Source of the DNA: Armatimonadota bacterium
Lineage (GTDB): Bacteria; Armatimonadota; UBA5829; DTJY01
Length of the DNA stretch: 64,000 nucleotides
Reading direction: 5' to 3'
Assembly (NCBI GenBank): GCA_029907255.1
Contig: JARYMF010000006.1
Coordinates: 70,426 to 134,425 of the forward strand
The notes beneath the pieces are model-generated. The model did not search any database. It worked only from the letters and a program-made list of their open reading frames with translations, and was not told the origin of the DNA. Made by a program: the position numbers and the translations under genes. Shown piece by piece: positions 35,844 to 57,941 of this stretch (position 1 is its first letter; the number at the start of each line of letters is the position of its first letter).

Positions 35844-35920
35844 TGGAGCCGACGATCCGATTCGAACGGACGACCCGCGCATTACGAATGCGCTGCTCTA
35901 CCAGCTGAGCTACGTCGGCC
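35844..35920 (-). tRNA. tRNA-Thr (anticodon CGU)
   Basis: Reverse complement GCCGACGTAGCTCAGCTGGTAGAGCAGCGCATTCGTAATGCGCGGGTCGTCCGTTCGAATCGGATCGTCGGCTCCA folds as a cloverleaf with anticodon loop TTCGTAA. Confidence 0.85.
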
Positions 35921-35947
35921 CGCACTACCGCTCTGATGATACCAGGT

Positions 35948-36023
35948 TGGTGCCGGGACCCAGAATCGAACTGGGGACACGTGGATTTTCAGTCCACTGC
36001 TCTACCAACTGAGCTATCCCGGC
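35948..36023 (-). tRNA. tRNA-Phe (anticodon GAA)
   Basis: GCCGGGATAGCTCAGTTGGTAGAGCAGTGGACTGAAAATCCAC...TTCGATTCTGGGTCCCGGCACCA, with anticodon loop CTGAAAA. Confidence 0.9.
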
Positions 36024-36072
36024 ACTACTCCGCGGTAAAGGCTATCGGCAAAGTCAGCTTTCAAATTAAAAA

Positions 36073-36151
36073 TGGCGGGGATGACGGGACTTGAACCCGC
36101 GGCCTCCTGCGTGACAGGCAGGCGCTCTAAACCGTACTGAGCTACACCCCC
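36073..36151 (-). tRNA. tRNA-Asp (anticodon GUC)
   Basis: GGGGGTGTAGCTCAGTACGGTTTAGAGCGCCTGCCTGTCACGCAGGAGG...GGGTTCAAGTCCCGTCATCCCCGCCA, with anticodon loop CTGTCAC. Confidence 0.85.
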
Positions 36152-36218
36152 GTGTGTAGCCAAAAGTCAAAAGTGAGGAAACCCTTCTTGTGCTCCTTCA
36201 GCTTTTGCTTGGCTTCGT

Positions 36219-36293
36219 TGGTGGGCGAAACAGGGCTCGAACCTGTGACCTCTTCCTTGTAAGGGAAGCGCTCTCCCAACTGAGCTATTCGCC
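36219..36293 (-). tRNA. tRNA-Val (anticodon UAC)
   Basis: GGGCGAATAGCTCAGTTGGGAGAGCGCTTCCCTTACAAGGAAGAGGTCACAGGTTCGAGCCCTGTTTCGCCCACCA, with anticodon loop CTTACAA. Confidence 0.85.
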
Positions 36294-36826
36294 CGCGTCC
36301 GGTAATCAATCCCGGACCCTCTTCACTGCGTAGTATATCAACACTACGCCCAGCTGTCAATAAAAACAGGTACTGCCACCTGCTTGATTTTCTCAATCAA
36401 AGCGATTTACGCAATCAAAGTATAGCATCCTGCGAGAAATATGTCAAGATAAAACACACTCTTTTACATCATCCGAGTACATGTAAATTGCGCTCCAAAT
36501 TTATTTTCCACAGACTGTAAATACAACTGCGACTGTCAGAAACTATGCGCAGTCGTTGGTAAAAAGTATGCAGAAAGTCTGCCATGAGCAAGAATTAAAC
36601 GCTGGTGAAAAAGACTTTCTATCACACCATTTGCTTGTTTTCTGCTATGCGGTTCGGCTTAAATGCGAATTAGCATCAGCTGCTTGACAATGCGACCGAG
36701 AAAAGCTACACTTCGATTACACTTCGAGCCGGCAGGCGATAACGTAACGGCACTAGTTTCCAATTTTATGTATCTTAACGAAAAATTATAGGTGTAAGTA
36801 ACGCTGGCTTTTCCCATCAGTCGCCA

Positions 36827-41830: not shown

Positions 41831-42490
41831 TTAGGACTCCTTTGCCTTTTCCGATGATTCCTCGGTTGGAGCCGCTGGAGCTTCCTCGGCAACTTCGGGA
41901 GCGGGCGCCACCTCTTCAACCCTCACGGCCGGCATTCTCACTGTGGCAACAACGATATCCGAAGGTGGCCCTAGCACTTCAATGTCTTCCGGCACTACTA
42001 GGTCGCCCACGTGCACCGATTCGCCCAGCTCAAGCTTTGAGACGTCTACATCAATGTGCGGTGGTATATGGTCAGGTAACGCCTTAACTTCGAGCTCACG
42101 TACGAATTGCTCAAGAATCCCACCTTGCTTCTGTCCGGGCGCCTCCCCAACCAGCACGAGCGGTACTGATGCATGCACTGGCTCGTTTAGGGAAACTCTG
42201 TGAAAGTCAACATGGATTATTTTCTTCGTAATTGGATTCCTCTGAATTTCTTGAATTAGCACAGGGTGAGCTTTTGATGTTTTGCCATCAACTTTTAGGT
42301 CTATTAATGCAAGCCGCCCACCTGGCGATTTGAGAATTTGCTCAAATTCCTCGCTCTCTATCTCTATCGCCTTCGGTTCAAAATCCTTGCCATATACTGT
42401 AGCAGGTATCTTGCCCTCACGCCGGAGCTTTTTCGTGTAGCTTTTCAATAGGCTCTGCCTACTCCGTGCAGAGAGTTGTAGCCTGGTCAT
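41831..42490 (-). CDS. rplY: 50S ribosomal protein L25 / general stress protein Ctc
   Basis: 219 aa. N-terminus MTRLQLSARSRQSLLKSYTKKLRREGKIPATVYG, a beta-barrel domain and an acidic/Ala-Pro-rich C-terminal extension typical of the Ctc form. Confidence 0.85.
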   Translation of the reverse strand: MTRLQLSARSRQSLLKSYTKKLRREGKIPATVYGKDFEPKAIEIESEEFEQILKSPGGRLALIDLKVDGKTSKAHPVLIQEIQRNPITKKIIHVDFHRVSLNEPVHASVPLVLVGEAPGQKQGGILEQFVRELEVKALPDHIPPHIDVDVSKLELGESVHVGDLVVPEDIEVLGPPSDIVVATVRMPAVRVEEVAPAPEVAEEAPAAPTEESSEKAKES

Positions 42491-42746: not shown

Positions 42747-43838
42747 TCAGTGGACACAAACTTCGGCTTTATCCTTCTCAGTATCGGATTTGCCGCCCGT
42801 GTTGTCTGGCTGCTTTGCTGCATCTCTAAGGTGCTTCGCAGCATCCTCAGGTGCCGTTACGTTTATGTATATGCCCGTCCCCATCTCAAAGCCTGCTGCG
42901 ATGGTGAGCCTGGGGGCTATCTCAAGATGCCAATGGAAAGTGTGATCTTTTTCGGCATCAAATGGTGCCGTGTGCAGAGTATAGTTGTATGGCGGATAGT
43001 TCAGGCACTTTCCTATCATTTGCAGTGCTCTCTGGACTACATCTGCGAATGCAGGAATTATCTCTTGGCTCTCGGCAAATGACTTATAGTGCCTCTTCGG
43101 CATGATCCAGGTTTCAAACGGGAATTTTGGCGCAAACGGCTCAAATGCAATGAAGTCCTCTGTCTCCACAATCACTCTTTGACCAAAGTTAAGTTCCTGG
43201 CGAATCATGTCGCAAAAAATGCATCGGTCATGATAATCATAGTATCTTTCGGCGCCAACAATTTCTTGTTTCACTTCCATCGGAACCATGGGCAGGGCAA
43301 TCAGCTGGGAATGAGGATGTTCGAGGGATGCGCCGGCTACCTTCCCATGATTGCGGAATATTAGGATATACTTGAATCTAGGATCTTTCCTCAAGTCAAG
43401 TATTCTCTGGTGGCAAGCCCACCATACTTCCTGCGCTTGGCGAGATGATATGGTAGCCATGCACTTGTCGTGCTCCGGAGTCTCAATGATTACCTCATGT
43501 GCCCCTACCGCATTCATGAAATCATACATCCCAACGCCACCCCGGTCGAGGTCTCCCTCAATAGCCAGTGCAGGGAATTTGTTAGATACCACCCTTACCC
43601 ACCAACCTGGGCTGTTAGGTGGACTTCCCGGAGGACGGAAAGCCAGCACCTCAGGCGGAGTCATTTCCTCATTCCCTGGACAAAACGGGCAAGTGGCGCT
43701 GAATGCCGGTCTTTGTGAGGTATTCTCGGCTTGGGAAAAATCGGATGGTCTCTTGCTACGCTCGGTGGCTATGATCACCCATTCCCTCGTTACCGGGTTT
43801 TTTCTCAACTGCGGCATCCTTGTCTCCTTTGCTGTCAA
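42747..43838 (-). CDS. galT: galactose-1-phosphate uridylyltransferase family (HIT superfamily)
   Basis: N-terminal RKNPVTREWVIIATERSKRP, zinc site CPFCPGNE and active-site HPHSQL. Length is 363 aa. Confidence 0.8.
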   Translation of the reverse strand: MTAKETRMPQLRKNPVTREWVIIATERSKRPSDFSQAENTSQRPAFSATCPFCPGNEEMTPPEVLAFRPPGSPPNSPGWWVRVVSNKFPALAIEGDLDRGGVGMYDFMNAVGAHEVIIETPEHDKCMATISSRQAQEVWWACHQRILDLRKDPRFKYILIFRNHGKVAGASLEHPHSQLIALPMVPMEVKQEIVGAERYYDYHDRCIFCDMIRQELNFGQRVIVETEDFIAFEPFAPKFPFETWIMPKRHYKSFAESQEIIPAFADVVQRALQMIGKCLNYPPYNYTLHTAPFDAEKDHTFHWHLEIAPRLTIAAGFEMGTGIYINVTAPEDAAKHLRDAAKQPDNTGGKSDTEKDKAEVCVH

Positions 43839-44012
43839 TCCTACTAAAATTTGCCAGGAGGCTCAATCAATATTGTCGGAAAGGTTTGCGCTCGACTATA
43901 GGTCAGAAACGAAGGTTTAGAAAGATATTTAACTTTTAAGGACGAAAACTGTGCTTTGGTAAGCGGAATGCATCGCAATGGCAGCATTCTACTGAAGAGT
44001 CGTTTATGCTGT

Positions 44013-44042
44013 TGACAAGACGACTTTTTAAAAAGTATAATG
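44013..44042 (+). promoter_or_regulatory. sigma-70 promoter TTGACA-18-TATAAT driving the ileS leader
   Basis: Consensus hexamers were read directly. There is no ORF between this promoter and ileS. Confidence 0.5.
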
Positions 44043-44049
44043 AGTAGCT

Positions 44050-44515
44050 AAGTCAACTTAAAACCGAAAAAGGCGAAGACGAGGACGAGTACCCGCTCCA
44101 GGAAATGCCTGGGAATTCGAATCACAAACTAATTAGGCGCAGTATTACGCTAAAGTGTTCGAATTAGCGACATGGTTACAGAGAACCGGGGCAGCTGAGA
44201 ACCGGAACCTAATGTCGGCGGGGAATATCACCTTCGAGCTGGAACGGCGAAAACAAGCACAACCAGCAACCATTTCGGTCGAAAGAGTAGTTAGGCGCGG
44301 ATGTTGTGTTTGCCATTAGTCGTTCACGGGAGCTCCCGTTACAGAGCAAGAGAATGTCGGAATGCAACGAATAACGTATTAACCTAGATTTTTCTCGTTA
44401 TCCGTTGGTTCCTAGTTCTCTGCGAGGTCGGCGGCGCGAGCCGTTGGCGAAAATGGGTGGTACCACGAAGGCTTATGCCTCTCGTCCCGTTAGTGGGTCG
44501 AGAGGCTATTTTATT
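44050..44515 (+). promoter_or_regulatory. T-box riboswitch leader (tRNA-Ile-responsive) with intrinsic terminator
   Basis: T-box sequence AAAATGGGTGGTACCACG at 44445..44462. A terminator hairpin GCCTCTCG...CGAGAGGC (44477..44506) is followed by TATTTTATTT. A candidate specifier AUC+A is seen in 'aatATCAcc' around 44229. Confidence 0.65.
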
Positions 44516-44566
44516 TCAAATTAGCTATACCAATACTAAGTCATTCTAGCTCTTGGGGGTCGTTCG

Positions 44567-49617: not shown

Positions 49618-49701
<84 letters not shown>

Positions 49702-57854: not shown

Positions 57855-57941
57855 TGCCGAAGTGGCGGAATGGCAGACGCGCATGGTTCAGGACCATGTG
57901 CCCGCAAGGGCGTGCGAGTTCAACTCTCGCCTTCGGCACCA
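57855..57941 (+). tRNA. tRNA-Leu (anticodon CAG)
   Basis: GCCGAAGTGGCGGAATGGCAGACGCGCATGGTTCAGGACCATGTGCCCGCAAGGGCGTGCGAGTTCAACTCTCGCCTTCGGCACCA, with anticodon loop TTCAGGA. Confidence 0.85.

Follow-up and report, generated by a model that had tools for sequence, protein, structure and literature searches.

The leader that precedes ileS in the window, by which we mean the whole stretch of 64,000 nucleotides of DNA that was analysed, is best read as a single class I, transcription-attenuating tRNA-Ile T-box riboswitch that controls ileS and tolerates peripheral expansions. We estimate the probability of this reading at about 0.9. The leader belongs to a known family, and its decorations are uncharacterised. 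We infer that it binds tRNA and switches according to tRNA charge, that its stem I forms a four-way junction in three dimensions, and that the stem I insert described below is neutral. The coordinates of the promoter, the T-box elements, the terminator and the gene are collected in Table 1. Other loci that were fetched for comparison are designated by L numbers.

Table 1. Elements of the ileS leader and gene, in window coordinates.
Feature	Position	Strand	Basis or remark
Sigma-70-type promoter	44012..44041	+	TTGACA 44012-44017, 18-nt spacer, TATAAT 44036-44041; 12/12 consensus
T-box leader, RF00230 full model (positions 1-219)	44067..44492	+	58.6 bits, E 4.5e-12 (region scan)
Stem I	44073..44239	+	Covariance-model alignment; GA (K-turn) motif at base, specifier loop, AG bulge, distal loop
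AGUA, 5' side of specifier loop	44088-44091	+	Motif
Stem I 5'-strand insert, lineage-specific, ~69 nt	44097..44167	+	Hairpin 1 44097-44113, hairpin 2 44114-44165
AG bulge ACAGAGAA	44178-44185	+	Covariance-model alignment
Stem I distal loop	44190-44201	+	Covariance-model alignment
Specifier codon AUC (Ile)	44227..44229	+	Position set by covariance model; context GAA-U-AUC-A 44223-44230
Stem II with long apical extension	44242..44325	+	Covariance-model alignment, ~90 nt inserted; fold
Stem IIA/B region	44326..44347	+	Covariance-model alignment
F-box CCGUUA	44336-44341	+	Conserved in all relatives
Linker hairpin, additional, between stems IIA/B and III	44346..44423	+	Base AGAGAA 44349-44354 / UUCUCU 44416-44421; fold
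Stem III	44427..44448	+	Covariance-model alignment; 9-bp hairpin in MFE fold
T-box sequence AAAAUGGGUGGUACCACG	44450-44467	+	Sequence
Antiterminator	44455..44488	+	Helix A1 GGG 44455-57 / CCC 44486-88; A2 44465-72 / 44477-85
7-nt bulge UGGUACC	44458-44464	+	Sequence; UGGNACC type; near-invariant in 25 leaders
Intrinsic terminator hairpin	44477-44506	+	G+C-rich arms GCCUCUCGUCCC / GGGUCGAGAGGC; -22.6 kcal/mol (ViennaRNA)
Terminator U-run UAUUUUAUUU	44507-44516	+	Ends 50 nt 5' of ileS ATG
GGGGG Shine-Dalgarno of ileS	44555-44559	+	~40 nt beyond the switch, outside it
ileS, isoleucine--tRNA ligase, 1043 aa	44567..47698	+	TIGR00392 794.6 bits

T-box core, promoter and terminator switch

A search with the Rfam T-box covariance model RF00230, which had been set as a test of the first-pass annotation, matched the leader from end to end, though with a score under the curated gathering score of the model, which is 93. 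In a permissive Rfam scan of the whole 64-kb window, RF00230 at this leader was the sole match other than tRNAs (E 3.6e-10), and a chance match is excluded. A default Rfam scan of the window at gathering scores returned six tRNAs only and no T-box. The conserved blocks are all placed with high posterior probability in the RF00230 alignment, which also contains three large insertions: 111 nt, against 40 in the model, in distal stem I; approximately 90 nt in the loop of stem II; and approximately 70 nt in the linker from stem IIA/B to stem III. It is because these insertions are penalised in the alignment that the score falls below the threshold.

The core motifs were then compared among related leaders. 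The T-box sequence, already recognised in the first-pass annotation, was found as AAAAUGGGUGGUACCACG, and its GGUGG, A, C and CG are invariant across 25 ileS leaders. The candidate AUC-A specifier that the same annotation had placed in the 5' part of the leader is put by the covariance model at the specifier position, and the pattern GAA-N-AUC-purine is kept in 14 of the 14 Armatimonadota leaders examined. The amino acid specified by AUC, isoleucine, agrees with the downstream gene. The canonical helices of stem I are supported by covariation among 12 Armatimonadota leaders (87.2% of cells paired, 12 pairs changed on both sides, 0 of 500 shuffles as good), and in P1 and P2, the helices flanking the specifier loop, 100% and 93% of cells, respectively, are paired, with four double-changed pairs in P2. 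The distal platform, ACAGAGAA-CCGG-GGCAGCUGAGAA-CCGG, is also conserved.

The gene itself had been annotated as an isoleucyl-tRNA synthetase of type-2 length, and this is borne out by its 1043 residues and its type-2 domain layout, which comprises the Pfam domains tRNA-synt_1 and Anticodon_1 and a C-terminal DUF5915 (PF19302, residues 844-1038). In type 1 isoleucyl-tRNA synthetases, a zinc-binding C-terminus is found where type 2 enzymes have the DUF5915-type domain; a zinc-finger domain was absent among the matches of the Pfam search of IleS. The MupA and MupB models gave 709 and 695 bits, far under their cut-offs of 1900 bits. The window contains no tRNA-Ile gene: its six tRNA genes encode tRNAs for Thr, Phe, Asp, Val and two for Leu. 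The first four form a cluster at 35844-36294 on the minus strand (Thr-CGU, Phe-GAA, Asp-GUC, Val-UAC), and the tRNA-Leu genes lie at 49618-49701 (minus strand) and 57856-57941 (plus strand). Upstream of the leader, and divergent from it, is a galT-like galactose-1-phosphate uridylyltransferase gene (42747-43838, minus strand), beyond which lies a gene for ribosomal protein L25/Ctc (41831-42490, minus strand). The order galT-leader-ileS-ASCH is common to the window and L081, and an ASCH gene is found 3' of ileS in L082 as well.

The consensus promoter TTGACA-18-TATAAT reported in the first-pass annotation is present and agrees with the consensus at 12 of 12 positions; only the start given for it, 44013, is one base off, since the promoter begins at 44012. 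The same TTGACA-18-TATAAT arrangement was found by sequence comparison 5' of the leaders of L112, L087, L088 and L089, with spacer sequences that are unrelated. The distance from the -10 hexamer to the ATG of ileS (44567) is approximately 520 nt, about twice the length of a usual T-box leader. The earlier description of an ORF-free leader of approximately 500 nt is therefore correct as to length and not strictly correct as to reading frames, as ORFs of 42-54 aa overlap the leader. We considered a leader peptide and rejected it: the 54-aa ORF at 44155-44319 begins within the insert specific to the window and has no conserved counterpart in L112, a close relative.

The switch region was analysed by folding and by comparison. 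The antiterminator is the minimum free energy (MFE) fold of an RNA truncated at 44489 (-12.4 kcal/mol, ViennaRNA). The G+C-rich terminator hairpin, followed by the U-run UAUUUUAUUU 50 nt before ileS, was recovered as it had been annotated; a simple terminator scanner run on the leader did not detect this terminator, and a U-U mismatch in its stem is the probable reason. The segment 44477-44488 is common to the antiterminator and the terminator, so that the two folds are mutually exclusive. An alignment of the discriminator domain was made from 25 ileS leaders of Armatimonadota, Chloroflexota and others. In this alignment 98.8% of the antiterminator cells are paired, compared with 50-61% when the partners are slid, and 90.5% of the terminator cells, compared with 43-53%; six terminator pairs are double-changed, and none of 500 shuffles scored as high. 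Folding of the two alternatives, another test set with the annotation, thus yielded an antiterminator and a terminator that both form, share one segment and are supported by covariation. The two grounds named there for abandoning a T-box, namely the lack of a covariance match and the lack of an alternative structure, were both found to be absent, because RF00230 matches and both folds form, with support across the leaders.

On the proposed mechanism, transcription would start just 3' of the consensus promoter, and the AUC specifier of stem I would read the anticodon of tRNA-Ile while the platform formed by the AG bulge and the distal loop would stack on the elbow of the tRNA. With uncharged tRNA, the 3' ACCA would pair with UGGU in the bulge and stabilise the antiterminator at 44455-44488, the weaker of the two structures, and RNA polymerase would then continue into ileS. 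With charged tRNA, the terminator at 44477-44506, the stronger structure, would form together with its U-run, and transcription would stop 50 nt before the start codon. The expansions would be peripheral to this process, with the core intact and the spacing from specifier to platform on the 3' strand unchanged by the stem I insert.

Expansions of stem I, stem II and the linker

The stem I insert, which lies in the 5' strand, folds as two hairpins (fold z -2.6). It is predicted to turn a mid-stem internal loop into a four-way junction through which the 3' strand runs straight. This asymmetry can be observed in the lengths of the two strands. On the 5' strand, the distance from AGUA to the AG bulge is 88 nt in the window and L081, 70 nt in L112, and 66 nt in L089 and L131, compared with 18-19 nt in nine insert-free relatives. 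On the 3' strand, the distance from the platform to the specifier is 17 nt in the window and L081, 17 nt in L112, and 18 nt in L089 and L131, and it is 16-19 nt in the nine insert-free relatives. The three-dimensional geometry between specifier and platform is probably kept with the insert in place. Stem I has been described to pivot at a hinge upon tRNA binding (PMC7583486), and the 69-nt mid-stem branch, which lies near the hinge region, may affect tRNA binding. Stem I is expanded elsewhere in two relatives, whose distal loop, usually of 12 nt, measures 36 nt in L004 (~2711-2746) and 29 nt in L010 (~2727-2755).

The whole leader, including its inserts, was also found in an independent assembly, L081 (SRR16588181), with six differences and an identical stem I insert. 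An assembly artefact is ruled out by this locus, as the same leader came out of a separate sequencing run. Of the six differences, two (44267 and 44295) lie in the stem II tip. They were considered as a compensatory pair and rejected, with a pairing probability of 0.06.

The insert sites of the different leaders match one another (window 44092-44179, L089 1037-1102, L131 2404-2469, L112 2971-3040), so that inserts are present at one site in three lineages, each folding as two hairpins with z-scores of -1.6 to -2.6. L131 is a near-copy of L089, whose IleS is 77% identical to that of the window. A metagenome pattern scan for an expanded stem I returned 41 matches, of which two were T-boxes (L112 and L131) and the others were chance matches. 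The insert of L112 is unrelated in sequence to that of the window, whereas the surrounding T-box core is nearly identical. The helix that flanks the insert is a perfect one of 6 bp in both leaders, with a compensatory change (CGACAU/AUGUCG in the window, CGGCAU/AUGCCG in L112), and the same columns form an unpaired internal loop in most insert-free leaders. The inserts of the window and L089, on the other hand, are approximately 74% identical by hand count over ~38 nt. Their first hairpins differ by a compensatory change from G-C to C-G (window CCAGG-AAAUG-CCUGG, L089 CCAGC-ACAAG-GCUGG), and they share AUUCGAA...UUCGAA at the base of hairpin 2. On this sequence evidence, the L089 insert appears recognisably homologous to that of the window. 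In an IleS neighbour-joining tree, the window groups with the insert-free L082, and L089 with the insert-free L001 and L088, each with 100% bootstrap. Because the homologous inserts sit in clades with insert-free sisters, two histories are possible: either the insert is old and was lost precisely several times and replaced in L112, or there were multiple gains or lateral movement.

These observations bear on a different reading, which we regard as unlikely, in which an RNA module, functional or mobile, is seen in the stem I insert, perhaps in other expansions too, and the leader is taken as a true architectural variant of the T-box. Such a module might provide a further contact to tRNA or protein, serve as a timer of co-transcriptional folding, or be a small element entering one site repeatedly. 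The use of exactly the same site in three lineages with two hairpins each, the resemblance and compensatory change shared by the window and L089 inserts despite their different IleS clades, and the perfect 6-bp helix that replaces the internal loop in the insert-bearing leaders of the window clade would all fit this idea. [quoted passage not shown] Neither was a second copy of the motif found in 1.06 Mb: second copies of the three inserted segments were absent from the 64-kb window and from all the fetched loci that make up this length, and within this sequence a mobile-element origin of the inserts was rejected. That the branch is a recurrent module, gained, exchanged or replaced at one stem I site in several Armatimonadota lineages, is for us likewise doubtful. 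If it were true, the module would add a tRNA or protein contact or kinetic control, and these leaders would be a branched-stem-I class missed by standard covariance models.

The other two expansions are a long stem II tip and a linker hairpin. The base of stem II is conserved, and its tip cannot be aligned with that of L112. The linker hairpin, absent from the Rfam consensus, was found in 12 of the 12 Armatimonadota ileS leaders compared (the window, L001, L002, L004, L006, L010, L082, L085, L087, L088, L089 and L112). Base pairs 1-5 of this hairpin are formed in 59 of 60 cells, and pair 2 is U-A in six leaders, A-U in three and C-G in three. A UG...(A/U)AG internal loop is likewise conserved in it, and the tip, which varies from 11 to 83 nt, cannot be aligned between the window and L112. 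For comparison, L112 and the window agree at 95 of the first 100 residues of IleS and at 65% of the third codon positions of ileS. As the hairpin tips cannot be aligned while the core is near-identical, these peripheral tips turn over faster than synonymous sites. We infer that the stem I insert and the hairpin tips are tolerated, fast-evolving decorations of the T-box rather than new functional parts.

In L001 (~2640-2690, 2724-2815), insertions of short tandem or inverted repeats can be observed, for example CACCGAU repeats in stem II. Short-repeat insertions are also present in L088 (~1265-1300, 1420-1480), for example GATTTCAGAT-like repeats in the linker. The sequences hint that slippage or palindrome-driven events may generate the expansions in these two leaders.

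Related leaders and the remaining alternatives

The closest IleS sequences in a species-level genome collection come from Armatimonadota metagenome-assembled genomes (63-77% identity), followed by those of Chloroflexota, Latescibacterota and others. Among metagenome relatives, P0001 is 99% identical (L081), P0002 81% (L082) and the others 76-78%. The placement of the window near Armatimonadota is based on the resemblance of IleS and of the leader and on the local gene order. A comparison with related ileS leaders, also set as a test of the annotation, revealed Armatimonadota T-boxes with AUC specifiers, three of them above the gathering score (L002 103.9, L006 97.1 and L010 97.1 bits). The leaders of L001 (73.2 bits) and L004 (72.8 bits) score below 93, and both carry large insertions of their own. 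No RF00230 match was obtained in L003 and L005 at E <= 0.01. In L090 (1479-1501), which is also without a T-box, ileS begins 22 nt 3' of a SpoU-type methylase gene. The lack of a T-box in L003, L005 and L090 indicates that not all members of this group have ileS under a T-box.

Phyla with known T-boxes are included in the kingdom Bacillati. According to the NCBI taxonomy, Armatimonadota belong to this kingdom too, and ileS has already been reported as a T-box target in Deinococcus, Chloroflexi and Actinobacteria (PMC2494555). The first-pass annotation had held that T-box control of ileS is uncommon in diderm lineages other than Firmicutes and so helps to place the organism; given these reports and the position of Armatimonadota, this is only loosely right.

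It could be proposed that the leader is a decaying, non-functional T-box relic which has been broken up by insertions, with ileS expressed constitutively or controlled otherwise. The Rfam score under the threshold and the three relatives without a T-box would be in keeping with decay; we nevertheless consider a relic very unlikely. All the insertions are peripheral, and the GA motif, AGUA/GAA, AUC-A, the AG bulge, the distal loop, CCGUUA, stem III, UGGUACC and the alternative helices are intact. Moreover, the core has hardly changed between the window and L112, and since this is so at only 65% identity of ileS third codon positions, it points to purifying selection on the core.

A translational T-box of the actinobacterial kind, hiding the Shine-Dalgarno sequence rather than terminating transcription, is to be weighed as well, as ileS is under translational T-boxes in Actinobacteria (PMC11297988, PMC7583486). 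The translational ileS T-box of Mycobacterium tuberculosis resembles the window leader in its Ile specifier, its target gene, stem II, the IIA/B stem and the logic of its discriminator. In that class, however, a short stem I without an elbow platform is combined with sequestration of the Shine-Dalgarno sequence (PMC11297988), whereas the window leader has a full-length stem I with a distal platform (compare the short stem I described in PMC9177973) and an intrinsic terminator. In the window and its relatives, a U-run comes after the alternative hairpin, and the GGGGG Shine-Dalgarno sequence lies approximately 40 nt past the switch. A translational mode is on these grounds highly improbable.

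A tandem or double T-box, which might have accounted for a leader of about twice the usual length, can practically be dismissed, as a single RF00230 match spans the leader, the T-box sequence, the platform and the specifier loop each occur once, and the extra nucleotides are three insertions within one model alignment. The first-pass annotation had suggested either a tandem or an otherwise elaborate stem I; the former is not found and the latter is, in the form of a branched stem I, to which the long stem II and the linker hairpin are added.

Comparison with known T-boxes and significance

A single T-box with expanded periphery, as we read the leader, agrees with the canonical T-box (RF00230) in the order of stem I, stem II, stem IIA/B, stem III and antiterminator/terminator, and in the GA motif, the S-turn AGUA/GAA, the purine after the specifier, the AG bulge and distal loop, CCGUUA and UGGNACC. 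The terminator with a U-run and the control of a cognate aminoacyl-tRNA synthetase gene are further points of agreement. It differs from the canonical form in its length, with a match of approximately 426 nt to a model of 219 positions and a score below the gathering threshold, and in having a 69-nt branch in stem I, a very long stem II tip and a conserved linker hairpin; in addition, the host is Armatimonadota-like and not a Firmicute.

The ileS T-boxes of Deinococcus and Chloroflexi (Wels et al. 2008, PMC2494555) regulate the same gene, and in the Chloroflexota loci that we fetched, IleS genes closely related to that of the window are preceded by the same T-box core and terminator. The distance from CCGUUA to the T-box sequence is, however, 37-70 nt in the Chloroflexota leaders and 115 nt in the window. 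Lineage-specific T-box insertions are documented, an example being stem Sa in staphylococcal glyS leaders (PMC9177973). Stem Sa (PMC9177973, PMC4574755) is similar to the stem I insert in that it is a lineage-specific hairpin of some tens of nucleotides with which the switch is retained. It is different in that it belongs to the antiterminator/terminator domain, is present in all staphylococci and has a demonstrated role, whereas the insert in the window is in stem I, patchy in distribution and variable in sequence.

A full-text search, in a literature collection of incomplete coverage, found no paper on T-boxes in Armatimonadetes/Armatimonadota, and none evidently concerned with a branched stem I when a four-way junction in stem I was searched for. 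Sequences longer than 500 nt were discarded in the construction of TBDB (PMC7778990).

The regulatory logic of the leader is textbook, and its value lies mainly in annotation and comparison. An ileS-controlling T-box is shown in an Armatimonadota-like lineage, and curated Rfam thresholds and length-filtered databases can miss T-boxes with large peripheral expansions. The related leaders with and without the mid-stem-I branch form a natural series in which the tolerance of the proposed spacing between specifier and elbow platform, and the role of insertions, could be tested.
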